A stretch of 46,375 nucleotides of DNA from the sequence record NC_001901.1, one strand, 5' to 3'. Below, piece after piece: positions 22,121-43,451 of this stretch. The position numbers and the translations under genes were made by a program. The notes under the pieces are model-generated. The model had not been told where the DNA came from. It worked only from the letters and a program-made list of their open reading frames with translations, and did not search any database. The stretch's first letter is position 1, and each line of letters starts with the position of its first letter. The DNA comes from Escherichia phage N15.

Positions 22121-23149
22121 CTATTTTTTCTCTTTATTTTTTATAATATTTTCCAACTTATCGAGGTCGCGATTAACCTGCTCAGCTGCACCTAATTCTG
22201 CCTCCAATAACGCTTCTATTTTTTTTATTAAATTAGAGGGTATTTTACGGCTATCTACTTTCAAAGTGACAAAACTACCCTTGTATTTAGCTACAACACC
22301 TTCACCATATTTCTTCTCGGTCTTGGGCATTTCTTCCTTATCGACAAGAATAAAGTCCTGTAGTGCCTGAATAATTCTTGCGGGCTCGAAATCCTCTCCA
22401 GCTTGCTTCATACGAAGCAACTGCTTCGCACCATCGAGCATAGTCTGCTCGTTACCCTTATACACTTTAGATAAAGCATCGCCAGCGCGAGCTGATAGCT
22501 CTCCCGGATGCTTGAAGATAGACAGGATCTCCCTCGGTAATCCGGCGGTATTCATGCAGCGGTTCACGATATTACGGTCGATGCCCTCTGCTTCAGCCAG
22601 GGCTTTAACGTTACCATCAAATTCTTTCAGTCGGCGCAAGTACCGTTTCCCGCGTTCGTATGCACTGGTTGGCCGATAGTCGTTACCCAACTGTGACAAC
22701 TGCTGCATTTGTTCATCATCCAGCTCTCCAACGAGAACCCGATAATCGCTACCAGTGATGATGGCTGTTTTGCGGCGGCGTGAGCCATCGGCAATTTCGA
22801 TAATGCCTGACGTCCTTCTGGCGAACGCGGGGTTCTGCTGTCCTGAAGTGAGGAATGAAGGGATAAGGTCGGCCAGCGCTGATTCGTTCAGCAATTCCTG
22901 ATCACGTTCATTACCGAGCCAAACCATTGTGGCCTTTTCGACTTTATCAGCAGGAATGGTTTCCAGCTTAAAAGTCACGTTGCGGCCGCAAACCGGTAGC
23001 GTAATGCTATTCCCGGACAACGAACTTAATTTGCTCTGTAAGTCGCCAACCATCGGCGAAACCGATGGCGCTTTTTGCGGCGCATTATGGTTATTGCTCA
23101 TGAACGTTTCGATGTTGGGCGCATTTTTTAATATAGAGCGATTCTTCAT
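22121..23149 (-). CDS. sopB: partition protein SopB (ParB family)
   Basis: ITLPVCGR, GNERDQELL, DLIPSF, GIIEIADGSRRRK, GELDDEQM, GNDYRPTSAYERG match F-plasmid SopB; ATG 23149 with GGGAGG RBS. Confidence 0.9.
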   Translation of the reverse strand: MKNRSILKNAPNIETFMSNNHNAPQKAPSVSPMVGDLQSKLSSLSGNSITLPVCGRNVTFKLETIPADKVEKATMVWLGNERDQELLNESALADLIPSFLTSGQQNPAFARRTSGIIEIADGSRRRKTAIITGSDYRVLVGELDDEQMQQLSQLGNDYRPTSAYERGKRYLRRLKEFDGNVKALAEAEGIDRNIVNRCMNTAGLPREILSIFKHPGELSARAGDALSKVYKGNEQTMLDGAKQLLRMKQAGEDFEPARIIQALQDFILVDKEEMPKTEKKYGEGVVAKYKGSFVTLKVDSRKIPSNLIKKIEALLEAELGAAEQVNRDLDKLENIIKNKEKK

Positions 23150-23151
23150 AG

Positions 23152-24315
23152 TTAGTCCTCCCAACGAGGTTTGATTAGATCTTCGAAAATTTCTTTGCAG
23201 ACTGGCTCCCAGATTTCCACTGCATTTCGCCAGGCATTAAGCGTTGAGCGTTGATTTGCTGCTTGCTCAAATACGGTGCGCATCTTGATCTGGCCTTTAC
23301 CAACTTCATCAGTGACCCGCACGACCTGTCGCAAGACCATAGCTCCCCAGGTATTTCGAATCTGCTCCTCCATCCACCGGGACTGATTGCCGTTAGTAAG
23401 GCTGTATTTGGTCAGGAGCAGGCGGACGACAGGTTCAAAGCCGCCCAAATCGACGGTTTCAAGCAGGTCGAGCAGCATGGTGAAAAACTGAAGAACTGAT
23501 GCATAGTCGAACAGCTCTGCAGGGGTTGCTACCACGATGACGTCAGCAGCACAGACAACGTTAATAGTTCCCGTACCCAAGTTTGGCGCGCTGTCTATGA
23601 CGATAATGTCGTAGTTATCCCATACAGACTCGATAGCAGCACGAAGCATCAGATGAGGGGGATGAGGTAGCTTCCCCTCGGAATGGTACTGCATCAGATC
23701 TGTTTCAATGCGGTGAAGGGCCAGGCAGCTGGGGATTATGTCGAGACCCGGCCAGCATGTTGGTTTTATCGCATATTCAGCGTTGTCGCGTTTACCCAGG
23801 TAAAATGGAAGCAGTGTATCGTCTGCGTGAATGTGCAAATCAGGAACGTAACCGTGGTACATAGATGCAGTCCCTTGCGGGTCGTTCCCTTCAACGAGTA
23901 GGACGCGGTGCCCTTGCAAGGCTAACCATTGCGCCTGGTGTACTGCAGATGAGGTTTTATAAACCCCTCCCTTGTGTGACATAACGGAAAGTACAACCGG
24001 GTTTTTATCGTCAGGTCTTTGGTTTGGGTTACCAAACACACTCCGCATATGGCTAATTTGGTCAATTGTGTAGCCAGCGCGACGTTCTACTCGGCCCCTC
24101 ATCTCAAAATCAGGAGCCGGTAGACGACCAGCTTTTTCCGCGTCTCTGATAGCCTGCGGTGTTACGCCGATCAGGTCTGCAACTTCTGTTATACCCCAGC
24201 GGCGAGTAATACGACGCGCTTCCGGGCTGTCATCGCCGAACTGTGCGATGGCAATAGCGCGCGTCATTTCCTGACCGCGATTGATACAGTCTTTCAGCAA
24301 ATTAATTAACGACAT
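23152..24315 (-). CDS. sopA: partition ATPase SopA (ParA family, Walker-type)
   Basis: EMTRAIAIAQF..DDSPEARRITRRW, KGGVYKTS Walker A, near-colinear with F SopA; likely start 24315 (GAGG RBS); ORF extends to 24360. Confidence 0.9.
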   Translation of the reverse strand: MSLINLLKDCINRGQEMTRAIAIAQFGDDSPEARRITRRWGITEVADLIGVTPQAIRDAEKAGRLPAPDFEMRGRVERRAGYTIDQISHMRSVFGNPNQRPDDKNPVVLSVMSHKGGVYKTSSAVHQAQWLALQGHRVLLVEGNDPQGTASMYHGYVPDLHIHADDTLLPFYLGKRDNAEYAIKPTCWPGLDIIPSCLALHRIETDLMQYHSEGKLPHPPHLMLRAAIESVWDNYDIIVIDSAPNLGTGTINVVCAADVIVVATPAELFDYASVLQFFTMLLDLLETVDLGGFEPVVRLLLTKYSLTNGNQSRWMEEQIRNTWGAMVLRQVVRVTDEVGKGQIKMRTVFEQAANQRSTLNAWRNAVEIWEPVCKEIFEDLIKPRWED

Positions 24316-24376
24316 CCTGTTTCCTCTCAAACATGCCCTTATCTTTGTGTTTTTCATCATACTTTACGTTTTTAAA

Positions 24377-24830: not shown

Positions 24831-24994
24831 AGGAGAACATAAGCGCAGAACAATATGTATCTATTCCGGTGTTGTGTTCCTTTGTTATTCTGCTATTATG
24901 TTCTCTTATAGTGTGACGAAAGCAGCATAATTAATCGTCACTTGTTCTTTGATTGTGTTACGATATCCAGAGACTTAGAAACGGGGGAACCGGG

Positions 24995-26890
24995 ATGAGC
25001 AAGGTAAAAATCGGTGAGTTGATCAACACGCTTGTGAATGAGGTAGAGGCAATTGATGCCTCAGACCGCCCACAAGGCGACAAAACGAAGAGAATTAAAG
25101 CCGCAGCCGCACGGTATAAGAACGCGTTATTTAATGATAAAAGAAAGTTCCGTGGGAAAGGATTGCAGAAAAGAATAACCGCGAATACTTTTAACGCCTA
25201 TATGAGCAGGGCAAGAAAGCGGTTTGATGATAAATTACATCATAGCTTTGATAAAAATATTAATAAATTATCGGAAAAGTATCCTCTTTACAGCGAAGAA
25301 TTATCTTCATGGCTTTCTATGCCTACGGCTAATATTCGCCAGCACATGTCATCGTTACAATCTAAATTGAAAGAAATAATGCCGCTTGCCGAAGAGTTAT
25401 CAAATGTAAGAATAGGCTCTAAAGGCAGTGATGCAAAAATAGCAAGACTAATAAAAAAATATCCAGATTGGAGTTTTGCTCTTAGTGATTTAAACAGTGA
25501 TGATTGGAAGGAGCGCCGTGACTATCTTTATAAGTTATTCCAACAAGGCTCTGCGTTGTTAGAAGAACTACACCAGCTCAAGGTCAACCATGAGGTTCTG
25601 TACCATCTGCAGCTAAGCCCTGCGGAGCGTACATCTATACAGCAACGATGGGCCGATGTTCTGCGCGAGAAGAAGCGTAATGTTGTGGTTATTGACTACC
25701 CAACATACATGCAGTCTATCTATGATATTTTGAATAATCCTGCGACTTTATTTAGTTTAAACACTCGTTCTGGAATGGCACCTTTGGCCTTTGCTCTGGC
25801 TGCGGTATCAGGGCGAAGAATGATTGAGATAATGTTTCAGGGTGAATTTGCCGTTTCAGGAAAGTATACGGTTAATTTCTCAGGGCAAGCTAAAAAACGC
25901 TCTGAAGATAAAAGCGTAACCAGAACGATTTATACTTTATGCGAAGCAAAATTATTCGTTGAATTATTAACAGAATTGCGTTCTTGCTCTGCTGCATCTG
26001 ATTTCGATGAGGTTGTTAAAGGATATGGAAAGGATGATACAAGGTCTGAGAACGGCAGGATAAATGCTATTTTAGCAAAAGCATTTAACCCTTGGGTTAA
26101 ATCATTTTTCGGCGATGACCGTCGTGTTTATAAAGATAGCCGCGCTATTTACGCTCGCATCGCTTATGAGATGTTCTTCCGCGTCGATCCACGGTGGAAA
26201 AACGTCGACGAGGATGTGTTCTTCATGGAGATTCTCGGACACGACGATGAGAACACCCAGCTGCACTATAAGCAGTTCAAGCTGGCCAACTTCTCCAGAA
26301 CCTGGCGACCTGAAGTTGGGGATGAAAACACCAGGCTGGTGGCTCTGCAGAAACTGGACGATGAAATGCCAGGCTTTGCCAGAGGTGACGCTGGCGTCCG
26401 TCTCCATGAAACCGTTAAGCAGCTGGTGGAGCAGGACCCATCAGCAAAAATAACCAACAGCACTCTCCGGGCCTTTAAATTTAGCCCGACGATGATTAGC
26501 CGGTACCTGGAGTTTGCCGCTGATGCATTGGGGCAGTTCGTTGGCGAGAACGGGCAGTGGCAGCTGAAGATAGAGACACCTGCAATCGTCCTGCCTGATG
26601 AAGAATCCGTTGAGACCATCGACGAACCGGATGATGAGTCCCAAGACGACGAGCTGGATGAAGATGAAATTGAGCTCGACGAGGGTGGCGGCGATGAACC
26701 AACCGAAGAGGAAGGGCCAGAAGAACATCAGCCAACTGCTCTAAAACCCGTCTTCAAGCCTGCAAAAAATAACGGGGACGGAACGTACAAGATAGAGTTT
26801 GAATACGATGGAAAGCATTATGCCTGGTCCGGCCCCGCCGATAGCCCTATGGCCGCAATGCGATCCGCATGGGAAACGTACTACAGCTAA
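24995..26890 (+). CDS. telN: protelomerase (telomere resolvase, tyrosine-recombinase-like)
   Basis: 631 aa starting MSKVKIGELINTLVNEVEAIDASDRPQGDK, recognised as N15 TelN; acidic C-terminal tail; adjacent to telRL. Confidence 0.95.
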   Translation: MSKVKIGELINTLVNEVEAIDASDRPQGDKTKRIKAAAARYKNALFNDKRKFRGKGLQKRITANTFNAYMSRARKRFDDKLHHSFDKNINKLSEKYPLYSEELSSWLSMPTANIRQHMSSLQSKLKEIMPLAEELSNVRIGSKGSDAKIARLIKKYPDWSFALSDLNSDDWKERRDYLYKLFQQGSALLEELHQLKVNHEVLYHLQLSPAERTSIQQRWADVLREKKRNVVVIDYPTYMQSIYDILNNPATLFSLNTRSGMAPLAFALAAVSGRRMIEIMFQGEFAVSGKYTVNFSGQAKKRSEDKSVTRTIYTLCEAKLFVELLTELRSCSAASDFDEVVKGYGKDDTRSENGRINAILAKAFNPWVKSFFGDDRRVYKDSRAIYARIAYEMFFRVDPRWKNVDEDVFFMEILGHDDENTQLHYKQFKLANFSRTWRPEVGDENTRLVALQKLDDEMPGFARGDAGVRLHETVKQLVEQDPSAKITNSTLRAFKFSPTMISRYLEFAADALGQFVGENGQWQLKIETPAIVLPDEESVETIDEPDDESQDDELDEDEIELDEGGGDEPTEEEGPEEHQPTALKPVFKPAKNNGDGTYKIEFEYDGKHYAWSGPADSPMAAMRSAWETYYS

Positions 26891-29885: not shown

Positions 29886-32800
29886 TTATATCGCCACGGC
29901 TTGCCGCTGGCTTAGAAACGCTTTCAGCAGCCTTATTTCGCGTACTGATAGCAGGTCCATAAATTCGGTCATGTACAGCGAGGCGAACGTTCTCGCGATG
30001 CTGGCCACTGGCCACAGGCGTACCGCCTCCATTTCGGTTGCTGGCAACGCGTTCTCCGCCCACGCCTCCGGTACCGCCACCGGGATAGCCTCCAGTGCCT
30101 GGATAATTACTGATTGTGGGGCGTCCGGAACGTGCTCTGTTTTGGATCGAGGGTTACCATGTATATCTATATTTAGATCCAAATCGCGATCCACTTCGAT
30201 GGTGGTTTTTTCCACCTTACGTGCGTGAATTGATAAACCGGCCTCGCGGCGCTTCTCCACGATATTCATGAGGAACTCGACCGAGTCCGGGTCAATGGAA
30301 CGCATCGTGGGGCGTGCATCGCCGTCTCTGGCGCGTCTGGTCTTACTGGATAGCCCCATAGACTCCAGGATGCCTATGCAGAGGTCTGCAGGCGCTTTCT
30401 TCTTGCCTTTCTCTGTGTTGAAGCCGCCGATGCGTAAAACGTTGTTTAGCAGATCGCGCCGTTCCGGCGTGAGCAGGTTATCTCTGGCGCGTTTGAGGGC
30501 GTCCATGTCTGCTTCACCTTCCAGGGTTTTTGGATCGATACCGCAGTCGCGGAAGTACTGCTGCAGCGTCGCCGATTTGAGGGTGTAGAAACCACGCATG
30601 CCTATCTCAACAGCAGGGGTCGATTTCACTCGGTAATCGGTTATGGCCGGGAATTTAGCCTGGAACTCTGCGTCGGCCTGTTCCCGCGTCATGGCCGTAG
30701 TGACGAACTGCTGCCATCTTCCGGCAACGCGATAAGCGTAGGTAAAGTGAATCAACGCTTCTTCACGGTCAAGGCGACGGGCGGTTATCTCATCCAGCTG
30801 CATGGTTTCAAACAGGCGCACTTTTTTCAGGCCGCCGTCGAAATAGAATTTTAACGCCACCTCGTCGACATCCAGCTGCAGCTCCTTTTCGATGTCCCAG
30901 CGGACCAGCTGGGCCTGCTCATCCAGGGACAGGGTGCGTTTTTTTATCAACTCATCGTGTTCGGCCTGGTCAGGAGTATCGACACTCAGGTGGCGCTCCA
31001 TAAGCTGCTCAAAGACCAGTTCACGGGCTTCTTTACGTAAATCCTTACCGATGCTGTTTGCAAGCGCGTCGGTGGCCATAGGCGCGACCTGATAGCCATC
31101 ATCATGCATGATGCAAATCATGTTGCTGGCATAATCATTTCTGGCCGATGCCTCGAGCGCGGCGGCTTTAATTTTGAGCTGCATGAATGAAGAGTTAGCC
31201 ACGCCGAGTGAAATTCGGTCACCGTCAAAGACAACGTCTGTCAGCAGCCCGGAGTGGCCAGCCGTTTCGAGCAAGGCCTGCGCGTAGGCGCGTTTGATTT
31301 TTTCCGGATCGGTTTCACGTTTACCGCGAAGCTTGTCGAAACCGATAATGTATTCCTGAGCTGTACGGTCGCGGCGCAGCATCTGGATGGCGTCGCTGGG
31401 GACCACTTCGCCGCAGAACATGCCGAAATGGCGGTGGAAGTGTTTCTCCTCAATCGATACACCTGAAGATATCGACGGGCTGTAGATGAGGCCGTCATAT
31501 TTTTTCACCATCACTTTAGGCTGGTTGGTGAAATCGTCGACTTCCTTCTCCTGTTTGTTTTTCTGGTTAACGCAGAGAAACTTTTTGTCAGGGAACTGTA
31601 GTCTCAGCTGCATGGTAACGTCTTCGGCGAACGTCGAACTGTCGGTGGCCAGCATGATTCGTTCGCCGCGTTGCACTGCAGCGATAACCTCGGTCATGAT
31701 CCGATTTTTCTCGGTATAAAATACGCGGATAGGCTTGTTGGTTTCGCGGTTGCGAACGTCGACCGGGAGTTCAATCACGTGAATTTGCAGCCAGGCAGGT
31801 AGGCCCAGCTCCTCGCGTCGCTTCATCGCCAGTTCAGCCAGGTCAACAAGCAGATCGTTGGCATCGGCATCCACCATAATGGCATGCTCTTCAGTACGCG
31901 CCAGCGCGTCGATAAGCGTGTTGAATACGCCTACCGGGTTTTCCATCGCACGCCCGGCCAGAATGGCACGCAGGCCCTGTGTTGCTTCATCGAAGCCGAA
32001 GAAGTCATGCTGGCGCATCAGCGGTTGCCAGCAGCCTTTAAGTATGGAGTTGATGCAAATAGTCAGCTTGTTGGCATATGGCGCCATTTCCTGATAGCCG
32101 GGATCCTGATAATGCAGAATGTCGGCTTTCGCGCCTTTCCCTTCGGTCATCATTTCATGCAGGCCGCCTATCAGGGATACGCGGTGCGCGACGGAAACGC
32201 CACGCGTGGACTGCAGCATCAGTGGACGCAGGAGGCCTGTCGATTTACCCGACCCCATCCCGGCGCGGACAATAACGATGCCCTGCAGCTGTGCGGCGTA
32301 TGTCATCACCTCATCGGTCATCCTGGAGGTTTCAAACCGTTTGTAAGTGATGTGTGACGGGCGAAGGTTCGGGTTGGTGATGCGTTCACTGAACGAACGT
32401 GATGTTTGCGCGGCACGGCATTTGCGATTCAACCGGCGCGTAATGTGATCTTTAACGGTACCGTTATAAATTTCTGCGATACCCATATCCCGCAGCGTGC
32501 TGCTGAAAAGGCGCATAAGTTCTTTCGGGCTGTTTGGTACCGGGCATGTCAGCATGCCAATATCAACGGCGCGAAGCAGTTCTTTGGCAAAAGTGCGTCT
32601 GTTCAGACGCGGGAGAGTACGCAGCTTATTCAGCGTGATCGACAACAGGTCGGTTGCACGGCTCAGATGATTTCTCGTTAACTGGCGAGCGACTTCCTTC
32701 AGCCCTCTCAGGCTGTGCAGGTCGTTAAAATCGCTGCATTCCAGCTCAGGGTCATCCTCAAAAGTTGGGTAAACACATTTGACGCCGGAAAACTTCTCCA

Positions 32801-33860
32801 TGATGTCGAATCCGGTGCGGAGGCCTGTGTTGCCTTTTCCTTCAGCTGAGGATTTGCGGTCGTTATCGAGAGCGCAAGTGATTTGCGCAGCCGGGTACAT
32901 GTTCACCAGCTGCTCGACAACGTGAATCATGTTGTTAGCGGAAACCGCAATGACTACCGCGTCAAAGCGTTTTTTCGGGTCGTTTCTGGTCGCCAGCCAG
33001 ATGGATGCCCCGGTGGCGAAACCCTCTGCAGTCGCAATTTTTTGCGCCCCCTGCAGGTCGCCAATAACAAAGCATGCACCGACGAAATCACCGTTAGTGA
33101 TGGCGCTGGTCTGGAACTTGCCACCATTCAGATCGATACGTTGCCAGCCAACAATCCGCCCGTCTTTTCTTCCGTCCAGGTGGGACAGAGGTATCGCCAT
33201 GTAAGTTGTTGGTCCACGGCTCCATTTCGCACTGTCGTGACTGGTCACGCGACGTATATCACAAGCGCCAAATACGTCACGAATTCCCTTTTTTACCGCA
33301 TAAGGCCAGGAGCCATCTTCAGCTGGCGAATGTTCCCAGGCGCGATGGAAAGCCAACCATCCAAGCAGGCGTTCCTGCTCCATCTGATTGTTTTTTAAAT
33401 CATTAACGCGTTGTTGTTCAGCTCGGAGGCGGCGTGCTTCAGCCTGGCGCTCCATGCGTGCACGTTCTTCTTCCGGCTGAGCGACCACGGTCGCACCATT
33501 CCGTTGCTGTTCACGGCGATACTCCGAAAACAGGAATGAAAAGCCACTCCAGGAGCCAGCGTCATGCGCTTTTTCAACGAAGTTAACGAAAGGATAACTG
33601 ATGCCATCCTTGCTCTGCTCAAGGCGTGAATAGATTTCCACACGGCCTTTAAGGCTCTTCTGCAGAGCTTCCGGGGAGGAATTATTGTAGGTGGTATAGC
33701 GCTCTACACCACCGCGCGGATTGAGCTGAATCTTATCAGCACACGCAGGCCAGTTGATACCGGCCATCTTCGCCAGCTCAGTCAGCTCATCACGTGCCGC
33801 GTCAAGCAGTGAAAACGGATCGCTGCCAAAGCGCTCCGCGTAGAATTCTTGTAAGGTCAT
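29886..33860 (-). CDS. repA: replication protein RepA, multidomain primase-helicase
   Basis: 1324 aa; Walker A GMGSGKST; size and position (downstream of cB) as N15 RepA. Confidence 0.9.
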   Translation of the reverse strand: MTLQEFYAERFGSDPFSLLDAARDELTELAKMAGINWPACADKIQLNPRGGVERYTTYNNSSPEALQKSLKGRVEIYSRLEQSKDGISYPFVNFVEKAHDAGSWSGFSFLFSEYRREQQRNGATVVAQPEEERARMERQAEARRLRAEQQRVNDLKNNQMEQERLLGWLAFHRAWEHSPAEDGSWPYAVKKGIRDVFGACDIRRVTSHDSAKWSRGPTTYMAIPLSHLDGRKDGRIVGWQRIDLNGGKFQTSAITNGDFVGACFVIGDLQGAQKIATAEGFATGASIWLATRNDPKKRFDAVVIAVSANNMIHVVEQLVNMYPAAQITCALDNDRKSSAEGKGNTGLRTGFDIMEKFSGVKCVYPTFEDDPELECSDFNDLHSLRGLKEVARQLTRNHLSRATDLLSITLNKLRTLPRLNRRTFAKELLRAVDIGMLTCPVPNSPKELMRLFSSTLRDMGIAEIYNGTVKDHITRRLNRKCRAAQTSRSFSERITNPNLRPSHITYKRFETSRMTDEVMTYAAQLQGIVIVRAGMGSGKSTGLLRPLMLQSTRGVSVAHRVSLIGGLHEMMTEGKGAKADILHYQDPGYQEMAPYANKLTICINSILKGCWQPLMRQHDFFGFDEATQGLRAILAGRAMENPVGVFNTLIDALARTEEHAIMVDADANDLLVDLAELAMKRREELGLPAWLQIHVIELPVDVRNRETNKPIRVFYTEKNRIMTEVIAAVQRGERIMLATDSSTFAEDVTMQLRLQFPDKKFLCVNQKNKQEKEVDDFTNQPKVMVKKYDGLIYSPSISSGVSIEEKHFHRHFGMFCGEVVPSDAIQMLRRDRTAQEYIIGFDKLRGKRETDPEKIKRAYAQALLETAGHSGLLTDVVFDGDRISLGVANSSFMQLKIKAAALEASARNDYASNMICIMHDDGYQVAPMATDALANSIGKDLRKEARELVFEQLMERHLSVDTPDQAEHDELIKKRTLSLDEQAQLVRWDIEKELQLDVDEVALKFYFDGGLKKVRLFETMQLDEITARRLDREEALIHFTYAYRVAGRWQQFVTTAMTREQADAEFQAKFPAITDYRVKSTPAVEIGMRGFYTLKSATLQQYFRDCGIDPKTLEGEADMDALKRARDNLLTPERRDLLNNVLRIGGFNTEKGKKKAPADLCIGILESMGLSSKTRRARDGDARPTMRSIDPDSVEFLMNIVEKRREAGLSIHARKVEKTTIEVDRDLDLNIDIHGNPRSKTEHVPDAPQSVIIQALEAIPVAVPEAWAENALPATEMEAVRLWPVASIARTFASLYMTEFMDLLSVREIRLLKAFLSQRQAVAI

Positions 33861-34108: not shown

Positions 34109-34717
34109 TCATCTACCCTCAACCATGAACGATTTGATCGTACCGACTACTTGGTGCACAAATTGAAGATCACTTTTATCATGGATAACCCGTTGAGAGT
34201 TAGCACTATCAAGGTAGTAATGCTGCTCGTCATAACGGGCTAATCGTTGAATTGTGATCTCGCCGTTATTATCACAAACCAGTACATCCTCACCCGGTAC
34301 AAGCGTAAGTGAAGAATCGACCAGGATAACGTCTCCCGGCTGGTAGTTTCGCTGAATCTGGTTCCCGACCGTCAGTGCGTAAACGGTGTTCCGTTGACTC
34401 ACGAACGGCAGGAATCGCTCTGTGTTGGCAGGTTCTCCAGGCTGCCAGTCTCTATCCGGTCCGGTCTCTGTCGTACCAATAACAGGAACGCGGTCTGGAT
34501 CAGATTCAGTGCCATACAGTATCCATTGCACGGGCTTACGCAGGCATTTTGCCAGCGATAGCCCGATCTCCAGCGACGGCATCACGTCGCCACGTTCTAA
34601 GTTTTGGACGCCCGGAAGAGAGATTCCTACAGCTTCTGCCACTTGCTTCAGCGTCAGTTTCAGCTCTAAACGGCGTGCTTTCAGTCGTTCGCCTCGTGTT
34701 TTCATACCCTTAATCAT
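34109..34717 (-). CDS. cB: CI-like prophage repressor (N-terminal HTH, C-terminal S24-like fold with catalytic dyad substituted)
   Basis: LTLKQVAEAVGISLPGVQNLERG HTH; C-terminal ..VGNQIQ..PGDVILVD...EITIQRL aligns to lambda CI/LexA but Ser and Lys are replaced. Confidence 0.85.
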   Translation of the reverse strand: MIKGMKTRGERLKARRLELKLTLKQVAEAVGISLPGVQNLERGDVMPSLEIGLSLAKCLRKPVQWILYGTESDPDRVPVIGTTETGPDRDWQPGEPANTERFLPFVSQRNTVYALTVGNQIQRNYQPGDVILVDSSLTLVPGEDVLVCDNNGEITIQRLARYDEQHYYLDSANSQRVIHDKSDLQFVHQVVGTIKSFMVEGR

Positions 34718-34798: not shown

Positions 34799-35014
34799 AT
34801 GAAACCCGAAGAACTTGTGCGCCATTTCGGCGATGTGGAAAAAGCAGCGGTTGGCGTGGGCGTGACACCCGGCGCAGTCTATCAATGGCTGCAAGCTGGG
34901 GAGATTCCACCTCTACGACAAAGCGATATAGAGGTCCGTACCGCGTACAAATTAAAGAGTGATTTCACCTCTCAGCGCATGGGTAAGGAAGGGCATAACA
35001 GTGGAACTAAATAG
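34799..35014 (+). CDS. cro: Cro-like repressor
   Basis: 71 aa, divergent from cB, HTH GVTPGAVYQWLQAG. Confidence 0.75.
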   Translation: MKPEELVRHFGDVEKAAVGVGVTPGAVYQWLQAGEIPPLRQSDIEVRTAYKLKSDFTSQRMGKEGHNSGTK

Positions 35015-35747
35015 CATTCGGGCCTGTGTATCTACGGCTCTGTCAGATATTCATTATCTCCAGCGCGGCATCCTTGAGGTCCAGCTGGAGCAGCTGCGTC
35101 TCGCAAGCTCTGACCGTTTCACTGACAAACCAACCAGAACGATCTGCATCGGCGATACGGAATCTTATGAAATCTCTGTGCCTGCCGAACCCGTTCGTTA
35201 TCACGTTGGTAAATCCTTCAAACGGTCTTCAATGCTGCTGACTGAATTAGATTTCATGACCGCCAGCTGGCGACGTGCCATTGAGCAGTTAAACAGTGAA
35301 GAAACTGCATGGTTGCATTATTGCTATGGATGCAAACCAAATTATAAGAATGATGTAACTGTTTGCCAGTGGCTGTGGATGGATTTTTTAATTGCGCATT
35401 CCAGAGCGGGCTTTAAAAAAATGAAAGCCCCAACAAAAAAAATTATGCAGAGATTAACTTACTACGGAATACAGCAAGTTAAATGTGAAATATTTCACGA
35501 ACTGCATGATTCGGATATTGATGGAATGGAGCGAGACGAACACATAAGTTCTTTAGTGGGTGTATCCGTCGAAAGCTGGCGTAAGGATTATAAAAAACGC
35601 TGGTTATTACTGAAATCACGATGCATGCATCTTAACGATACCGCGTTATTAAATGCGGCGGAGAAGCGCTGTGAAATCATCGAAAGCCATCGTGCAAGAA
35701 GTGCCGACCTGCCTGTGTCAGCAGGTTATGCTCAGGAAACCAGATAA
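35001..35747 (+). CDS. putative late-gene antiterminator (Q-like by position); start uncertain (GTG 35001 with AAGGAAGGG RBS, or ATG 34959)
   Basis: Position immediately after cro as in lambdoid phages; Cys cluster CYGC...C; no motif-level confirmation possible. Confidence 0.4.
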   Translation: MELNSIRACVSTALSDIHYLQRGILEVQLEQLRLASSDRFTDKPTRTICIGDTESYEISVPAEPVRYHVGKSFKRSSMLLTELDFMTASWRRAIEQLNSEETAWLHYCYGCKPNYKNDVTVCQWLWMDFLIAHSRAGFKKMKAPTKKIMQRLTYYGIQQVKCEIFHELHDSDIDGMERDEHISSLVGVSVESWRKDYKKRWLLLKSRCMHLNDTALLNAAEKRCEIIESHRARSADLPVSAGYAQETR

Positions 35748-35973: not shown

Positions 35974-36157
35974 GCAAGGCCCCATGTCGCGCACTGATGC
36001 GGAAAATATTTCTGACCTTTATAAGAAAAAAGGTCATGAAGTAGTTATCGCAGAATCCATGAATTTAGATGGAACTTATTATGTTTACGTTACGCTACCT
36101 GAATTAAAGCAAGAGCCTAAGCCATCCAAAACCTTTCAACAAAGAATATGGGAGTAA
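35954..36157 (+). CDS. hypothetical small protein (alternative start 35984)
   Basis: ORF with AAGG RBS before 35984. Confidence 0.35.
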   Translation: MKNTPFKQGPMSRTDAENISDLYKKKGHEVVIAESMNLDGTYYVYVTLPELKQEPKPSKTFQQRIWE

Positions 36158-36159
36158 CA

Positions 36160-37074
36160 ATGGTAAATATCCAAAAAACGATTTTAGCGATGATTATGCA
36201 TAAATGGCTTAAGAGCGATTATGTTGTCATTGACACGGAAACAACAGGGCTGGGCGAATATGCTGAGATTATCGAAATTGCGATCATCAATATGCGCGGA
36301 GAAGTTTTGCTGGACACTTTGGTTAAACCGACCAAACCGATCCCTCCTGAAGTAACCGAAATAAACCACATCACAAACGAAATGGTCGCCAGTGCACCAG
36401 CGTGGTGTGATGTGTTCCCGAAGGTGCTGGCGATCATCAGTAAACACAAATGGCTGGCCTGGAATTCTGGTTTCGATGCTCGCATGCTGGAACAGACCTG
36501 CTTGAACACGATTTTTTTAAATAAAAATGCTTATTACGTGACCGCAATGGTTTCCCGTATTCACACGAGCCATATTGACGCTAAAGCAGTCTACGACACG
36601 TGGTACGGAGAGTACGATGCGAAGCACCAGGCTTTCAAGCGCCAGAGCCTGACAATCGCAGCTGCCCGACACGGTGTATTGCTGGAAGGAGCACACCGCG
36701 CTCTGGCCGACTGCAAAATGGTTCTGGCCGTACTGCAAAAAGTCTGCGCTCCCGTTCCTCAGATTGAAAGCTCTGTCGAGAAAGACCTGCCACCCTGCCC
36801 GTTCTGTTATGGGCCACCATCGTTGTTCACCCATTACCTGAATGACAAAGGCTATTCCCCTTTATATCAGCCCGTGAATTATGGCGATGATGGCCTGTAC
36901 GTAGGTTCGTATGTCTTTTGCCATGAATGCGGCGCACAGGGTGAAGAAGTAGGAGGCCACGCCTACGAAGATTCAGATGTAGAGCAGCTCGAAGCAGCAG
37001 CCAGGAATGTCTGGTCCGATCGCAACGAACGCCACCGCGACCTGTATACAGCCTCTCGAAACGTCGAAGAGTAA
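36160..37074 (+). CDS. DnaQ-like (DEDDh) 3'-5' exonuclease with C-terminal Cys-rich zinc-ribbon-like domain
   Basis: VVIDTETTGL (Exo I), WNSGFDARML (Exo II), HRALADC (Exo III); C-terminal CPFC...CHEC; RBS GGAG. Confidence 0.7.
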   Translation: MVNIQKTILAMIMHKWLKSDYVVIDTETTGLGEYAEIIEIAIINMRGEVLLDTLVKPTKPIPPEVTEINHITNEMVASAPAWCDVFPKVLAIISKHKWLAWNSGFDARMLEQTCLNTIFLNKNAYYVTAMVSRIHTSHIDAKAVYDTWYGEYDAKHQAFKRQSLTIAAARHGVLLEGAHRALADCKMVLAVLQKVCAPVPQIESSVEKDLPPCPFCYGPPSLFTHYLNDKGYSPLYQPVNYGDDGLYVGSYVFCHECGAQGEEVGGHAYEDSDVEQLEAAARNVWSDRNERHRDLYTASRNVEE

Positions 37075-39292: not shown

Positions 39293-39514
39293 ATGGATAA
39301 AAAAGCATTGTTATTCGAACGCCTTCGGCAGAGAAGCGAAAGCAGTCTGGCCAGCGGAGGTGATGGGTTTATTTTTGCCTCAATGCTGGCGTTCGACATC
39401 GGTCTGAACACAAGAACGATCCGGGGGATGCTGGACTCTGCTGTGAAAAATGGAACCCTGGAAAAAAAAGAACGTGGAGCTGGCCGTGCACATAAGTACC
39501 GGACAATTCAGTAG
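39293..39514 (+). CDS. hypothetical protein (73 aa)
   Basis: RBS GGAGGG 5 nt before ATG; preceded by palindrome GTGACTGGTCAC. Confidence 0.5.
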   Translation: MDKKALLFERLRQRSESSLASGGDGFIFASMLAFDIGLNTRTIRGMLDSAVKNGTLEKKERGAGRAHKYRTIQ

Positions 39515-39563
39515 TTTAATCAAAAAAATTGCCAAAAAATGGTTGTATCGTTTGCGGATTTCC

Positions 39564-39579
39564 CTGTGTTTATATACAG
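39564..39579 (+). promoter_or_regulatory. LexA (SOS) box CTGTGTTTATATACAG
   Basis: CTGT-N8-ACAG with AT-rich centre, immediately followed by TATTAAAT (-10-like). Confidence 0.7.
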
Positions 39580-39603
39580 TATTAAATAACCTTGGTAGAC
39601 AAA

Positions 39604-39831
39604 ATGGTATACGATTCAATGACAGATGCAGCCGTGTCATGTTGTGAAAAACTTGATTCCCAGCTAAGCGATCTCGATGCTGTCCTGGATATGGTGAGCA
39701 CCGTTATGGCCTCACCAGAGGCCAGCCTTCATATGAATGAGGCGGCACGTCTTCTGCGCATGTCTCGTAATATGGTCCACAGATGCAAGGATGTTGTCGC
39801 GGATGAGCTCATTCGGCAGGCTGGCGAATAA
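39604..39831 (+). CDS. small protein (75 aa) under LexA box; candidate SOS-inducible antirepressor
   Basis: First ORF downstream of LexA box; N15 is reported to be induced via an SOS-regulated antirepressor, but assignment to this ORF is my inference. Confidence 0.4.
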   Translation: MVYDSMTDAAVSCCEKLDSQLSDLDAVLDMVSTVMASPEASLHMNEAARLLRMSRNMVHRCKDVVADELIRQAGE

Positions 39832-39866
39832 AAAAGGGAAAGGCGAGATACCCTCGCCTTTCCCTT
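39827..39866. terminator. bidirectional terminator (12-bp stem) between + strand small gene and - strand toxin-antitoxin operon
   Basis: gggaaaggcgag / ctcgcctttccc stem with A-run upstream. Confidence 0.65.
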
Positions 39867-39895
39867 GTTACTTCACCTGCAGATACTCGTCTTAA

Positions 39896-40183
39896 TCAAT
39901 ACACAGCATGAATATCAATGCTTGCACCGCAAGCCTTAGCGTATCGAGATAGTGTCTTCATGCTGGCACCTAGTGGGTTGCTTTCCAGGCGGCTAATTGC
40001 TGATGGCTGCAACCCCATGCGTTCAGCCAGCGCAGACTTCGTCAGGCCAGCTTTCTCCCTCATCTCGTAGAGCATTTCAACCATCGCCAACTCCTTGTCG
40101 GCATCTTCGTAACCCCGGATAGCCTCCGGGGTATTGAGCAGTTCTTCTTTCACCTGATTAAATGGGATGCCTTTTACTTTCAT
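39896..40183 (-). CDS. HTH (XRE-family) antitoxin, HigA-like
   Basis: 95 aa; LTKSALAERMGLQPSAISRLE HTH; ATG overlaps toxin stop (TAATG). Confidence 0.75.
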   Translation of the reverse strand: MKVKGIPFNQVKEELLNTPEAIRGYEDADKELAMVEMLYEMREKAGLTKSALAERMGLQPSAISRLESNPLGASMKTLSRYAKACGASIDIHAVY

Positions 40184-40494
40184 TAGCTCATCTCCTTCAG
40201 ACGCGTTCTGGCGATATCAATTGCGTGGGTAGGCGTCTTTTGCGTCTTCTTAACAAATGCATGTAGCAGATAAATTTCGTTACCTACCGCGTAAGCGTAC
40301 AGCGTTCTCGCTATGTTTTTATCCCCTACCCTTAGTTCGAAAAGGCCACCACCGATAACGCGGCTATGAGGCATTTTCAGCTTGTTCCCTTCACTTTCCA
40401 GTCTCTCGATCAGCCGGGTCATGCGACCGCGTAGCTCATCAGGTAATTCTTTAAGCTCATCCAGCGCTGCCGGGTGGGTTATCACGTTAAACAT
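40183..40494 (-). CDS. RelE/ParE-superfamily toxin, HigB-like (toxin-first operon)
   Basis: 103 aa from ATG 40494 with AGGAGG RBS; LKMPHSRVIGGGLFELRV...LYAYAVGNEIYLLHAFVKKTQKTP typical of this family. Confidence 0.75.
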   Translation of the reverse strand: MFNVITHPAALDELKELPDELRGRMTRLIERLESEGNKLKMPHSRVIGGGLFELRVGDKNIARTLYAYAVGNEIYLLHAFVKKTQKTPTHAIDIARTRLKEMS

Positions 40495-40554
40495 AGTATA
40501 ACCTCCTGATGTGGAAAATATACTAAAAACGTAAAAATCACACAATAGGCAAAT

Positions 40555-40570
40555 TTCACTAAAAAGTGAA
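40555..40570. promoter_or_regulatory. palindrome TTCACTAAAAAGTGAA upstream of toxin-antitoxin promoter (operator candidate)
   Basis: 5-bp inverted arms; candidate -35 TTGTGT / -10 TATATT on - strand just downstream. Confidence 0.45.
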
Positions 40571-40660
40571 AAATAAAGCTGGATGTGCTTATTGGGCAGA
40601 GTTACAGTTTGTGTCGTTGAGAGGGGTAAAGCCCATAACCGCATGAATCTGGAGTAAATT

Positions 40661-40882
40661 ATGAATTATCAAGGCAACGAAAAAATGCGCAAAGATGCGG
40701 CAGATATTTCTAACGAGCTGTATGAGTTATGGCAGAAAGTGAAGCGTTTTGAGCGTGAATACAGCTTTAACAGTAAAAACCTGACCGACCGACTGGCTGG
40801 CCGCCTTATTGGAACGATGGAGCCTAAGCTGGCAGAGTTGAACAAATTTATGGCCGATGTCGATTACCAGTTCGAAGATTAA
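40661..40882 (+). CDS. hypothetical protein (73 aa)
   Basis: RBS GGAG; clean ORF. Confidence 0.5.
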   Translation: MNYQGNEKMRKDAADISNELYELWQKVKRFEREYSFNSKNLTDRLAGRLIGTMEPKLAELNKFMADVDYQFED

Positions 40883-40891
40883 GGAGGCTCT

Positions 40892-41119
40892 ATGCACGCG
40901 AAAGAAATACGCCGGAATATGACCGAAGAAGCGTTAAGCGTTGAGTTCGTAATGCGTGGGCATCCACGCATTAGCCTGGCAGAGCTGAGTGAAGCCTGCC
41001 GCTTAAGCCAGGCATCAACAGAGTTTATTATTGAGCAGATGGTTTGTTTTGGTGTGGCGCGGCGCGGCGCTTTCGGAAGATACTCACTAACAAACGAGTA
41101 TGAAAACGGAATAATCTGA
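40892..41119 (+). CDS. hypothetical protein (75 aa)
   Basis: RBS AAGGAGG. Confidence 0.55.
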   Translation: MHAKEIRRNMTEEALSVEFVMRGHPRISLAELSEACRLSQASTEFIIEQMVCFGVARRGAFGRYSLTNEYENGII

Positions 41120-41251: not shown

Positions 41252-41386
41252 TGCCTGAAAAAGTGGGCGCGGGACGAGTTGCAGCTCATCCCGCGGTCAA
41301 CCCATGCCAGAGGTATAGGCTGAACCCAAAGCCCACCCGCGATGCGCATCGCTGGGTTAGCTTACCCAGGCAGAACCATAATAGCT

Positions 41387-42475
41387 ATGTTAAAAACTAC
41401 ACAAATCAATGGAGCGCAGCTCGTTTGCGCAGATTCTCTGCAATTCATAAAAACCATCCCTGATAATTCCGTAAACCTGATCGCGACAGACCCGCCCTAT
41501 TTTGGCGTTAAGTCGAACGACTGGGACAACCAGTGGGAAAGTGACGCGGACTTTTTGGGCTGGCTTGATGAGTTTCTGGCGGAGTTCTGGAGGATACTGG
41601 CCCCAAATGGAAGCCTGTATATGTTTTCCGGTTCGCGGCTTGCGGCAAAAGTTGAATTACTTACCCGCGACCGTTTCAATGTTTTGAACCACATCACCTG
41701 GGCTAAACCGAGCGGTGTATGGCGGCGGCAAAATAAAGAGAGCCTGCGAGCATTCTTCCCGGCAACCGAGCGCATCATATTCGCTGAACATTACGGCGCG
41801 TCTGGCTATGCGAAAGGTCAGTCGGGTTATGCCAGCAAATGTGCAGAGTTGCGGAAAGACGTATTTTCTCCGTTGATTGGAGCATTTGCATCAGCCCGAC
41901 AGCAGCTGGGGATTTCAGCTGCGGACATCAACGCTGCGACAGGGAAAAAGATGTGTTCACACTGGTTTTCCTCGTCGCAGTGGCAGTTACCGTCGCTGGA
42001 TGACTTCAACAAGCTGCATGAGCTGTTTATGCAGCGGGCGCAAGTTCTCGGCGTAGCATGTCCTCCGCCATTCGATATCGGGTATAGCGAGCATGAAAAG
42101 CAGTATGCCGATCTAAAAACGCAATACGATGCGGTTAAAGCGCAATACGATGGCCTTAAGGCTCAGTATGAAAGCCTGCGCCGCCCGTTCTCTGTGACTG
42201 CAGATGTTCCCTATACGGATGTTTGGGAGTTCCCACCGGTGCAGTATTACCCAGGGAAACACCCGTGCGAGAAGCCAGCTGCGATGATGGAACATATCAT
42301 CAGGAGCAGCTCTCGCCCCGGCGATGTAGTCGCCGACTTCTTCATGGGGTCCGGTAGTACGATTAAGGAGGCTCTGAAGCTTGGGCGTAAGGCCATAGGC
42401 GTAGAAATTGAAGAAGAGCGTTACCTGCAGACAGTAGAAGAAGTTAAAGAAGTAGTAAAAAAAGAAGAGAGTTGA
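41387..42475 (+). CDS. DNA N6-adenine methyltransferase (beta-class, DPPY before FxGxG)
   Basis: NLIATDPPYF (motif IV) precedes DFFMGSGST (motif I); start uncertain (41342 or 41387). Confidence 0.8.
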   Translation: MLKTTQINGAQLVCADSLQFIKTIPDNSVNLIATDPPYFGVKSNDWDNQWESDADFLGWLDEFLAEFWRILAPNGSLYMFSGSRLAAKVELLTRDRFNVLNHITWAKPSGVWRRQNKESLRAFFPATERIIFAEHYGASGYAKGQSGYASKCAELRKDVFSPLIGAFASARQQLGISAADINAATGKKMCSHWFSSSQWQLPSLDDFNKLHELFMQRAQVLGVACPPPFDIGYSEHEKQYADLKTQYDAVKAQYDGLKAQYESLRRPFSVTADVPYTDVWEFPPVQYYPGKHPCEKPAAMMEHIIRSSSRPGDVVADFFMGSGSTIKEALKLGRKAIGVEIEEERYLQTVEEVKEVVKKEES

Positions 42476-42609: not shown

Positions 42610-42915
42610 ATGAGAATGAACGATCACTCAGGGAACATCTTCACGCAATTATTTGCGTGGCTTGGAACCATAGCTGCAGCGCTGGGTTTTACCACCCAAG
42701 ACATGATTTACATGTTTTTCGGGGCTGTGGGGCTTCTAATCTCCCTTGCATCCTTCATCAACGGAAGAATTGATGCACGCCGCCGTCGGAAAGAAGATGA
42801 GAAGCGAACGGCAATGATAAGGGCTTACCTGGAAGAAGTTAGCGATAAGCCTATCGAAGAACGTCCGACAGCGGTGAGCGTAGTAGCGGATGTACTCGCT
42901 AAGGCAGGCGAGTGA
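42610..42915 (+). CDS. holin (two TMDs, dual-start MRM motif)
   Basis: Two hydrophobic helices, charged C-terminus, Met-Arg-Met N-terminus; first gene of lysis cassette. Confidence 0.7.
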   Translation: MRMNDHSGNIFTQLFAWLGTIAAALGFTTQDMIYMFFGAVGLLISLASFINGRIDARRRRKEDEKRTAMIRAYLEEVSDKPIEERPTAVSVVADVLAKAGE

Positions 42916-43451
42916 TGGCTAACAGGGCAAAATTAAGCGCAGCCGTTCTAAGTTTGATTCTTGCTGGCGCGTCAGCCCCACAAATTCTCGACCAGTTTTT
43001 GGATGAGAAAGAGGGAAATAGCCTTACTGCTTACAAAGATGGCAGCGGCATCTGGACGATATGCCGTGGTGCCACAATGGTTGATGGCAAGCCAGTAATG
43101 CAGGGCATGAAGTTGACGCAGGCCAAATGCAATCAGGTAAACGCCATCGAACGCAATAAGGCTCTTGCGTGGGTTGACCGCAATATCAAAGTTCCTCTGA
43201 CCGAACCGCAGAAAGCCGGTATCGCATCTTTCTGCCCGTACAACATAGGCCCAGGCAAATGCTTCCCATCGACGTTCTATAAGCGTCTTAATGCTGGCGA
43301 CCGCCACGGGGCTTGTGAGGCGATCCGATGGTGGATAAAGGATGGTGGCCGCGACTGTCGACTGACCAAGGGCCAGAAGAATGGATGCTATGGGCAAGTT
43401 GAGCGGCGTGACCAGGAAAGTGCGTTGACGTGCTGGGAGATAGACCAGTGA
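42915..43451 (+). CDS. SAR endolysin, T4-lysozyme-like (GH24)
   Basis: N-terminal weakly hydrophobic Ala/Gly/Ser-rich signal-anchor; catalytic E...D...T in EGNSLTAYKDGSGIWT; phage 21 R-like. Confidence 0.85.
   Translation: MANRAKLSAAVLSLILAGASAPQILDQFLDEKEGNSLTAYKDGSGIWTICRGATMVDGKPVMQGMKLTQAKCNQVNAIERNKALAWVDRNIKVPLTEPQKAGIASFCPYNIGPGKCFPSTFYKRLNAGDRHGACEAIRWWIKDGGRDCRLTKGQKNGCYGQVERRDQESALTCWEIDQ

Follow-up and report, generated by a model that had tools for sequence, protein, structure and literature searches.

The closest described relatives of the two-gene cassette analyzed here, gp49-gp48 of Escherichia phage N15 (46,375 nucleotides of sequence record NC_001901.1, hereafter the window), are the toxin-antitoxin systems of the tad-ata family, namely tad-ata of Paracoccus aminophilus pAMI2, s045-s044 of SXT and Z3230-Z3231 of E. 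coli O157, a family that includes this very N15 locus. These systems share a toxin gene in first position, a toxin that falls in COG4679/DUF891 and an antitoxin with an XRE-type helix-turn-helix (HTH) domain (PMC2701414). The N15 locus is itself the subject of a functional study as a stabilising system of the tad-ata type (Dziewit et al. 2007, J Bacteriol 189:1983), which PMC2701414 (Makarova et al.) also cites. The same study is cited for the reverse, toxin-first organization of operons encoding Gp49-domain toxins (PMC5906591). PMC12977533 refers to it alongside the report on phd-doc of P1 where addiction modules possibly encoded by phage-plasmids are concerned, and PMC3581621 mentions the "chaperone-less gp49-gp48 locus of the E. 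coli N15 prophage". N15 is also listed among the phages that carry toxin-antitoxin systems (PMC4553209). In addition, the Pfam family PF05973 "Gp49" takes its name from the N15 toxin, which is its founding member.

We identified both genes by an exact-sequence protein look-up: the toxin open reading frame (ORF) is identical in sequence to N15 Gp49 (AAC19088.1 / O64357_BPN15) and the antitoxin ORF to N15 Gp48 (AAC19087.1 / O64356_BPN15). The cassette is very probably the gp49-gp48 type II toxin-antitoxin operon of the phage-plasmid N15, of the tad-ata type and alternatively named Gp49-type higBA. It is an already known, plasmid-stabilising module of this linear plasmid-prophage, so that an earlier note made from the raw sequence read it correctly without making a discovery. 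This note had taken the locus to be functionally uncharacterised, which is wrong in view of the papers citing Dziewit et al. (2007). The locus has little weight as a discovery; it does confirm that the raw sequence alone is enough for a reader without tools to recognise a toxin-antitoxin cassette. Our analysis establishes the identity of the two genes, the family, predicted fold and conserved catalytic residues of the toxin, the anatomy of the operon and the covariation of an upstream palindrome. The comparison of operators is the one modest addition to what is known of the locus, and may already feature in the 2007 paper.

The toxin belongs to the Gp49 family and is predicted to adopt a RelE fold

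Analysis of the 103-residue toxin against Pfam returned a match to the full PF05973 model (positions 1-90) with a score of 103.1 bits, for a cut-off of 23.9, and an E-value of 8.5e-30. No other Pfam family matched at E <= 0.01, and neither the canonical HigB families PF05015 and PF09907 nor the ParE family PF05016 gave a match; the NCBIfam search returned nothing for the toxin. A search of 5.8 billion proteins led to the identification of 820 homologues, and 120 out of 120 among the matches listed carry PF05973. The ORF finder also offered an extended toxin of 153 residues starting from an ATG at 40644. The 103-residue product was preferred because of its strong ribosome-binding site and of the annotation of its relatives.

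Next to these sequence matches, a model of Gp49 calculated with AlphaFold2 (predicted local distance difference test score 86.9, predicted template-modelling score 0.81) consists of a short N-terminal strand, two helices, four antiparallel strands and a helix spanning residues 89-102. Gp49 is thus predicted to have the RelE/BECR fold with a long C-terminal helix. Foldseek ranked ribosome-bound HigB1 of Mycobacterium tuberculosis (7nbu_Y), 7awk and 6af4 as the best matches to this model, with template-modelling (TM) scores of 0.75-0.78, followed by RelE and YoeB. In contrast, canonical HigB of E. coli and Shigella (5ycl, 6kml and 5ifg) reached TM scores of only 0.5-0.58 with E > 0.03, and ParE chains 0.43-0.52 with E > 0.02. 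A sequence profile built on 48 homologues pointed to the same proteins in the PDB, with S. pneumoniae HigB (6af3) at 1.6e-9 and M. tuberculosis HigB1 at 1.8e-7 (about 2e-7 over 7nbu and 7awk).

Alignment of the 48 homologues revealed 14 invariant positions (P42, S44, G50, F52, E53, L54, R55, R63, Y66, L77, K82, K83, T84 and R98). Four of them, E53, R55, R63 and K82, align with E66, R68, R77 and K95 of the HigB of the toxin-antitoxin-chaperone (TAC) system. In HigB1, the K95A substitution abolishes toxicity, K58, R68, R77 and K99 are also required, and E66 contributes with a partial effect (PMC9098466). A 2025 review describes PF_gp49, under the names gp49, tad and HigB1, as ribosome-dependent mRNA-cleaving ribonucleases (RNases) encoded in toxin-then-antitoxin order (PMC11980606). 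This particular toxin is probably an enzyme of that kind.

These results bear on several statements of the earlier note. A type II operon combining a toxin of the RelE superfamily with an XRE-HTH antitoxin was borne out by PF05973, by the HTH_3 domain of Gp48 described below and by the predicted fold. The search of toxin family models, proposed there as a check, gave PF05973 and no placement in an unrelated family. Of the label "HigB/RelE-type", the RelE part is retained at the level of the superfamily, whereas the HigB part needs correction: judged by its sequence, Gp49 lies outside the canonical HigB families and is a "HigB" mainly through its gene order.

Of note, residues 43-93 of Gp49 also match the C-terminal part of the PADLOC NsnC model (E 1.2e-6), because some Menshen systems use a Gp49-type RNase domain as their NsnC effector (PMC12065111).

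Gp48 and the organization of the operon

The 95-residue product of gp48 carries an XRE/Cro-type HTH domain (Pfam HTH_3, E 1.4e-12, residues 38-90) preceded by an N-terminal extension of about 37 residues. Among PHROGs it matched phrog_1373 "transcriptional regulator" (1.3e-34), and in the PDB it gave a weak match to S. pneumoniae HigA (6af3_B, 0.0095). Only sub-threshold HTH matches were obtained for the antitoxin in the NCBIfam search.

The two genes are arranged as the earlier note had described, the toxin gene (ATG at 40494, preceded by AGGAGG) coming first and the antitoxin gene second, which is visible in the sequence and in the list of ORFs. The TAA stop codon of gp49 (40185-40183) and the ATG of gp48 (40183-40181) share one base in the overlap TAATG. 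Each gene has its own ribosome-binding site (Table 1), and the GGAGG part of the Shine-Dalgarno sequence of the toxin gene is kept in relatives.

A scan of positions 39500-41000 for sigma-70 promoters at the standard threshold found none. We then lowered the threshold to 8 out of 12 matching bases, which yielded two candidates upstream of gp49. One of them, TTGTGT-17-TATATT, scores 8/12, and both its hexamers are kept across the aligned phage-plasmid and chromosomal cassettes in the form TTG(N)G(T/A), 17 nucleotides, TATATT. The other candidate, TTCACT-17-TATTGT, was rejected because the sixth base of its -10 hexamer, a T, varies among the relatives. The 2007 study is reported to have found two promoters of different strength, the second one before the antitoxin gene.

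Downstream of gp48 lies a hairpin with a 15-bp G+C-rich stem, whose fold was calculated at -35.6 kcal/mol (z = -7.6) for the minus strand and -30.6 kcal/mol for the plus strand. The U-tract UUUUUUAUU is found in the minus-strand transcript only, the plus strand reading GUUACUUCA, and the terminator was called on the minus strand only. The strong hairpin noted earlier is thus present, while its description as bidirectional is not supported by the sequence since the U-tract is limited to the minus strand. A plus-strand ORF of 79 residues converges on this terminator; it matched PHROG 6301, of unknown function, and less strongly a PHROG labelled "anti-repressor" (1.3e-8), and had no match in Pfam.

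The cassette is the sole minus-strand unit from Q to the lysis genes, both in the N15 window and in relatives, and it lies antisense within the operon transcribed rightward from Q into these genes. On this basis a setting among late genes with a regulation of its own, as put forward in the earlier note, is reasonable. The replicon that hosts it is a plasmid prophage with sopAB.

A palindrome upstream of the toxin gene as a candidate operator

Upstream of the candidate promoter we found the palindrome TTCACTAAAAAGTGAA of the earlier note, which in fact extends by one base on each side into a perfect 7+4+7 repeat. The candidate -35 hexamer begins 8 bp downstream of its end. Taken alone this palindrome is statistically unremarkable, because the window holds 5.1 perfect inverted repeats per kb with arms of 6 bp and a spacing of 0-10 nucleotides, so that about 0.85 are expected in the 166-bp gp49-gp50 spacer. 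Within the window its 18-mer pattern occurs only once, also when 2 mismatches are allowed.

We compared the region with the corresponding one in seven distant cassettes, whose toxins are 63-79% identical to Gp49. Two of them come from phage-plasmids (Serratia fonticola and Pectobacterium), four from unrelated chromosomal sites (Xenorhabdus, Yersinia, Buttiauxella and Edaphovirga) and the seventh from a short contig of Photorhabdus, where it stands beside a second Gp49-HTH pair. The palindrome is kept at one register, 71-83 nucleotides before the toxin ATG. Its sequence is kept in the Enterobacter hormaechei and Klebsiella aerogenes phage-plasmids, which share the arms TTTCACT / AGTGAAA with N15, whereas the arms read TTTCTCT / AGAGAAA in Xenorhabdus, ATTTATCT / AGATAAAT in Pectobacterium and AAATTAACT / AGTTAATTT in Yersinia. 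In these last three the changes in the arms are compensatory and the symmetry is retained, as expected for the binding site of a dimeric HTH protein. On the small sample of six distinct sequences, 92.9% of the arm positions are complementary and 3 out of 7 arm positions have changed on both sides. This score was reached by 3 out of 500 shuffles, and complementarity fell to 17-55% when the partner arm was slid by 1-3 columns.

Conservation of the operator is not universal: the palindrome is imperfect in S. fonticola and KpLi5, only a degenerate remnant is left in Photorhabdus, and none was found at the expected register in Buttiauxella. Since the palindrome accompanies the cassette into sites without gp50, it is part of the toxin-antitoxin module. 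Altogether, the covariation supports the view that the palindrome is an operator that co-evolves with the cassette, and Gp48 is the protein that would bind it. A role as an RNA hairpin was rejected, the fold reaching just -6.5 kcal/mol and lying upstream of the likely transcription start, so that a DNA operator is preferred.

A second element of this type may be present closer to the gene. Yersinia and S. fonticola show another CT-N4-AG core 18 nucleotides downstream of the first one, and a second palindrome covers the -35 region in Yersinia, Pectobacterium and Edaphovirga. The corresponding site of N15 is a weak match and we propose it tentatively as a second operator-like site (Table 1). A co-evolving operator would offer a precise target for footprinting and could help to predict antitoxin-operator pairing across Gp49-type modules.

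Distribution and neighbourhood of the cassette

Toxin-first order was found in 7 out of 7 homologous loci, with gene overlaps of 4 or 11 nucleotides. The occurrence of this overlapping pair in the unrelated chromosomal contexts of Xenorhabdus, Yersinia, Buttiauxella and Edaphovirga indicates that it moves as a unit. The pair is also retained by N15-like phage-plasmids from Klebsiella, Enterobacter, Serratia and Pectobacterium, which have sopAB partition. At the DNA level, the best matches in the phage collection were phiKO2-like Klebsiella phages with about 81% identity, and those in the plasmid collection were an E. hormaechei phage-plasmid at 94.6% and about 240 Klebsiella plasmid records. 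The spacer of 166 bp that separates gp49 from gp50 shows 87% identity across four phage-plasmids, compared with about 81% for the whole 1.1-kb region when N15 is set against the Klebsiella members. The similarity with the phiKO2-like elements of Klebsiella ends at 39951, within the 3'-terminal part of gp48, which indicates that the C-terminus of the antitoxin, the terminator and gp47 have been replaced in the phiKO2-like lineage. Only the Enterobacter plasmid matched through the whole 1.1 kb.

Besides the cassette, the window contains the hallmark genes of N15, namely those of TelN, SopA, SopB, RepA, CB and Q (Table 1). The 308-residue protein encoded downstream of Q carries an RNase_T-type exonuclease domain and, at its C-terminus, a Lar restriction-alleviation domain. 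The gene divergent from the toxin gene, gp50, encodes 73 residues without a Pfam match; its counterparts in the Serratia (locus L005, 1109-1330) and Pectobacterium (locus L008, 1117-1338) phage-plasmids carry a precomputed match to PF27407 "YubE". The order gp49-gp48, gp50, gp51 and methyltransferase is kept across N15-like elements. Within the gp49-gp50 spacer, a block of about 26 nucleotides, TCTCAACGACAC(A/G)AACTGTAACTCTG on the minus strand, does not vary among the N15, Enterobacter and Klebsiella phage-plasmids, is partly kept in those of Serratia and Pectobacterium and is absent from chromosomal Gp49 cassettes. This distribution indicates that the block belongs to the phage backbone, and it may be a promoter or a regulatory site for the divergent genes gp50-gp52.

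Among the chromosomal copies, those of Buttiauxella (locus L007) and Edaphovirga (locus L010), both at 1501-2096, lie between hycI and a pair of Fe-S and molybdopterin oxidoreductase genes, that is in the formate-hydrogenlyase neighbourhood, and the Xenorhabdus copy adjoins formate dehydrogenase-type genes. The common site could reflect either an inherited insertion or a preferred one. In Photorhabdus (locus L009) two divergent Gp49-HTH cassettes, at 701-1316 and 1501-2093, stand back to back around one common intergenic region.

Table 1 Features of the gp49-gp48 cassette and of its surroundings in the N15 window.
Feature	Position	Strand	Basis
gp49, 103-aa toxin (Tad / Gp49-type HigB), RelE/BECR superfamily	40183-40494	minus	identity to N15 Gp49, PF05973
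gp48, 95-aa antitoxin (Ata / HigA-like)	39896-40183	minus	identity to N15 Gp48, HTH_3
Shine-Dalgarno AGGAGG, 7 nt before toxin ATG	40502-40507	minus	seen in sequence
AAGGAG for antitoxin, inside toxin gene 3' end, 8 nt before ATG	40192-40197	minus	seen in sequence
Candidate sigma-70 promoter, -35 TTGTGT (40545-40540), 17-nt spacer, -10 TATATT (40522-40517)	40517-40545	minus	relaxed scan
Palindrome TTTCACT-AAAA-AGTGAAA, perfect 7+4+7, likely primary operator O1	40554-40571		sequence and covariation
Tentative second operator-like site TTTGCCT-ATTG-TGTGATT, degenerate, overlapping the -35 hexamer	40536-40553	minus	inferred from relatives
Intrinsic terminator, 15-bp G+C-rich stem and U-tract	39834-39866	minus	hairpin call and fold
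Conserved block of about 26 nt	40590-40625	minus	
ORF of 79 aa converging on the terminator	39592-39831	plus	
gp50	40661-40882	plus	
SopB	22121-23164	minus	
SopA	23152-24360	minus	
Protelomerase (TelN)	24953-26890	plus	
Large RepA	29886-33860	minus	
CB-type repressor	34109-34717	minus	
Q antiterminator	34959-35747	plus	
Exonuclease (308 aa)	36148-37074	plus	
DNA methyltransferase	41342-42475	plus	
Lysozyme	42912-43451	plus	

Proposed mechanism and alternative explanations

From these elements we propose the following model for the addiction module. A single promoter located about 25 nucleotides upstream of AGGAGG would give rise to a bicistronic mRNA ending at the downstream hairpin (Table 1). 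Gp49 would be translated first, and translation of Gp48 would be coupled to it through the TAATG overlap while also using its own AAGGAG. The XRE-HTH protein Gp48, as a dimer, would bind and neutralise Gp49 and, alone or together with Gp49, repress the operon from the upstream palindrome and probably also from the weaker site that overlaps the -35 hexamer. Once the prophage is lost, Gp48, which is presumably labile, would decay and leave Gp49 free to cleave mRNA in the ribosomal A site, leading to growth arrest or death of the cured cell. Such post-segregational killing would supplement sopAB partition. The 2007 study reportedly found that the N15 locus stabilises heterologous replicons and that overexpression of its toxin is bactericidal.

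Several points weigh against this model. Some toxins of the Tad family are said to have caused filamentation with inhibition of replication in the 2007 work, in which the effects on cell morphology reportedly differed among the four toxins tested. Filamentation with replication inhibition differs from the textbook RelE phenotype. At the level of the sequence, the prediction of the operon promoter is weak (8/12), the relaxed 8/12 scan found no convincing promoter directly before the antitoxin gene, and the palindrome is centred outside the core promoter, some 52 bp upstream from the transcription start predicted near 40510. The toxicity of Gp49, its neutralisation by Gp48 and the stabilisation of heterologous replicons are moreover taken from the literature, through the title of the 2007 paper and secondary citations. 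HigB2 and HigB3 of M. tuberculosis, which are also members of the Gp49 family, are non-toxic (PMC9098466), so that membership in the family is by itself no proof of activity. Finally, deletion of the SXT homologue s045-s044 did not raise the loss of the native element (PMC2654960); stabilisation of a test plasmid is therefore no proof of a role in the native replicon.

The filamentation phenotype would fit a toxin acting like ParE, as a gyrase poison or by another block of replication, instead of cleaving mRNA on the ribosome. The RelE/ParE superfamily does contain gyrase poisons of the same fold (PMC11980606), and ParE structures were among the matches of our fold search. Their TM scores (0.43-0.52) are however far from those of the HigB, RelE and YoeB RNases (0.75-0.78), PF05016 does not match Gp49, the catalytic Glu, two Arg and Lys of the RNases are invariant, and the PF_gp49 members tested so far are ribosome-dependent mRNA-cleaving enzymes, all of which makes a ParE-like activity very unlikely. 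The conserved catalytic residues also argue against a pair that would not be a toxin-antitoxin system at all, with Gp48 regulating neighbours such as gp50-gp52 and Gp49 serving as a harmless co-factor. PHROGs labels the family of Gp48 "transcriptional regulator" and that of Gp49 "unknown function", a Gp48 homologue is annotated "repressor" in one Klebsiella phage, and the divergent gp50 shares its intergenic region with gp49. Against this, the pair and the palindrome move together into chromosomal sites without gp50, the palindrome is single in the genome, and a toxin-antitoxin function with toxicity relieved by Gp48 is reported for the N15 locus in the literature. We consider such a plain regulator hardly credible.

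A main role in anti-phage defence, through abortive infection, superinfection exclusion or phage-phage competition, would be compatible with addiction. In this scenario, Gp48 would become depleted once another phage infects the cell or host transcription is shut off, and Gp49 would halt translation before the invader finishes its cycle. The HigB of an E. coli toxin-antitoxin-chaperone module, which belongs to the Gp49 family, mediates abortive infection triggered by a lambda tail protein (PMC11980606), Gp49-type domains are effectors in the Menshen (NsnC) system (PMC12065111), and the cassette is retained in phage-plasmids that already have sopAB. However, we found no experiment on defence by N15 or its relatives in the literature searched, no PADLOC model calls the pair a defence system, the toxin matches only a domain of NsnC and the antitoxin only generic HTH models, and the function published for the locus is replicon stabilisation. 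Defence as the main role thus appears rather unlikely. The antisense position of the cassette within a Q-antiterminated rightward operon, with Q on one side and the lysis genes on the other, could further suggest a switch linked to the life cycle, a proposal that we regard as improbable. The cassette would then act in the lysogen as an autoregulated addiction or defence module, and upon induction, or upon the shut-off imposed by a competing phage, convergent late transcription or the loss of Gp48 synthesis would free the mRNA-cleaving Gp49, which would shut down translation of the host or of the competitor. If true, N15-like phage-plasmids would gain an abortive-infection or exclusion function that is so far undescribed for them. 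The question of phage defence touches N15-like phage-plasmids of clinical Klebsiella and Enterobacter.

Comparison with known systems

Among the other known systems, the one most similar in structure is HigB1 of M. tuberculosis (TAC, Rv1955; 7awk, 7nbu). It shares with Gp49 the Pfam family, the best structural match (TM 0.77-0.78), the long C-terminal helix, the aligned E, R, R and K residues, the toxin-first order and the XRE antitoxin (PMC3581621). The two toxins are nevertheless only about 24-27% identical, and HigB1 has a codon preference and contacts with the initiator tRNA among its features. In addition, the antitoxin of TAC needs a SecB-like chaperone, whereas gp49-gp48 of N15 is without one. 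HigBA of S. pneumoniae (6af3, 6af4), which among PDB entries is closest in sequence to both the toxin and the antitoxin, likewise pairs a Gp49-type toxin with an HTH antitoxin. Its HigB differs by a length of 141 residues with an N-terminal extension, an identity of about 22% and a chromosomal location instead of one on a phage-plasmid.

Canonical HigBA, represented by plasmid Rts1 and E. coli K-12 (PF05015, PF09907), resembles the N15 operon in its toxin-first order, HTH antitoxin and stabilisation of plasmids, and in the ribosome-dependent mRNA cleavage and the autoregulation through promoter palindromes that are proposed for N15 (PMC11980606), but its toxins belong to other Pfam families, show no sequence match and have a much weaker similarity of fold. 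The likeness to phd-doc of P1 is one of biological setting, phd-doc being, as is proposed for gp49-gp48, an addiction module of a plasmid prophage that complements active partition (PMC12977533), whereas the proteins are unrelated, the toxin of P1 is a kinase with a Fic fold and its antitoxin is encoded first.

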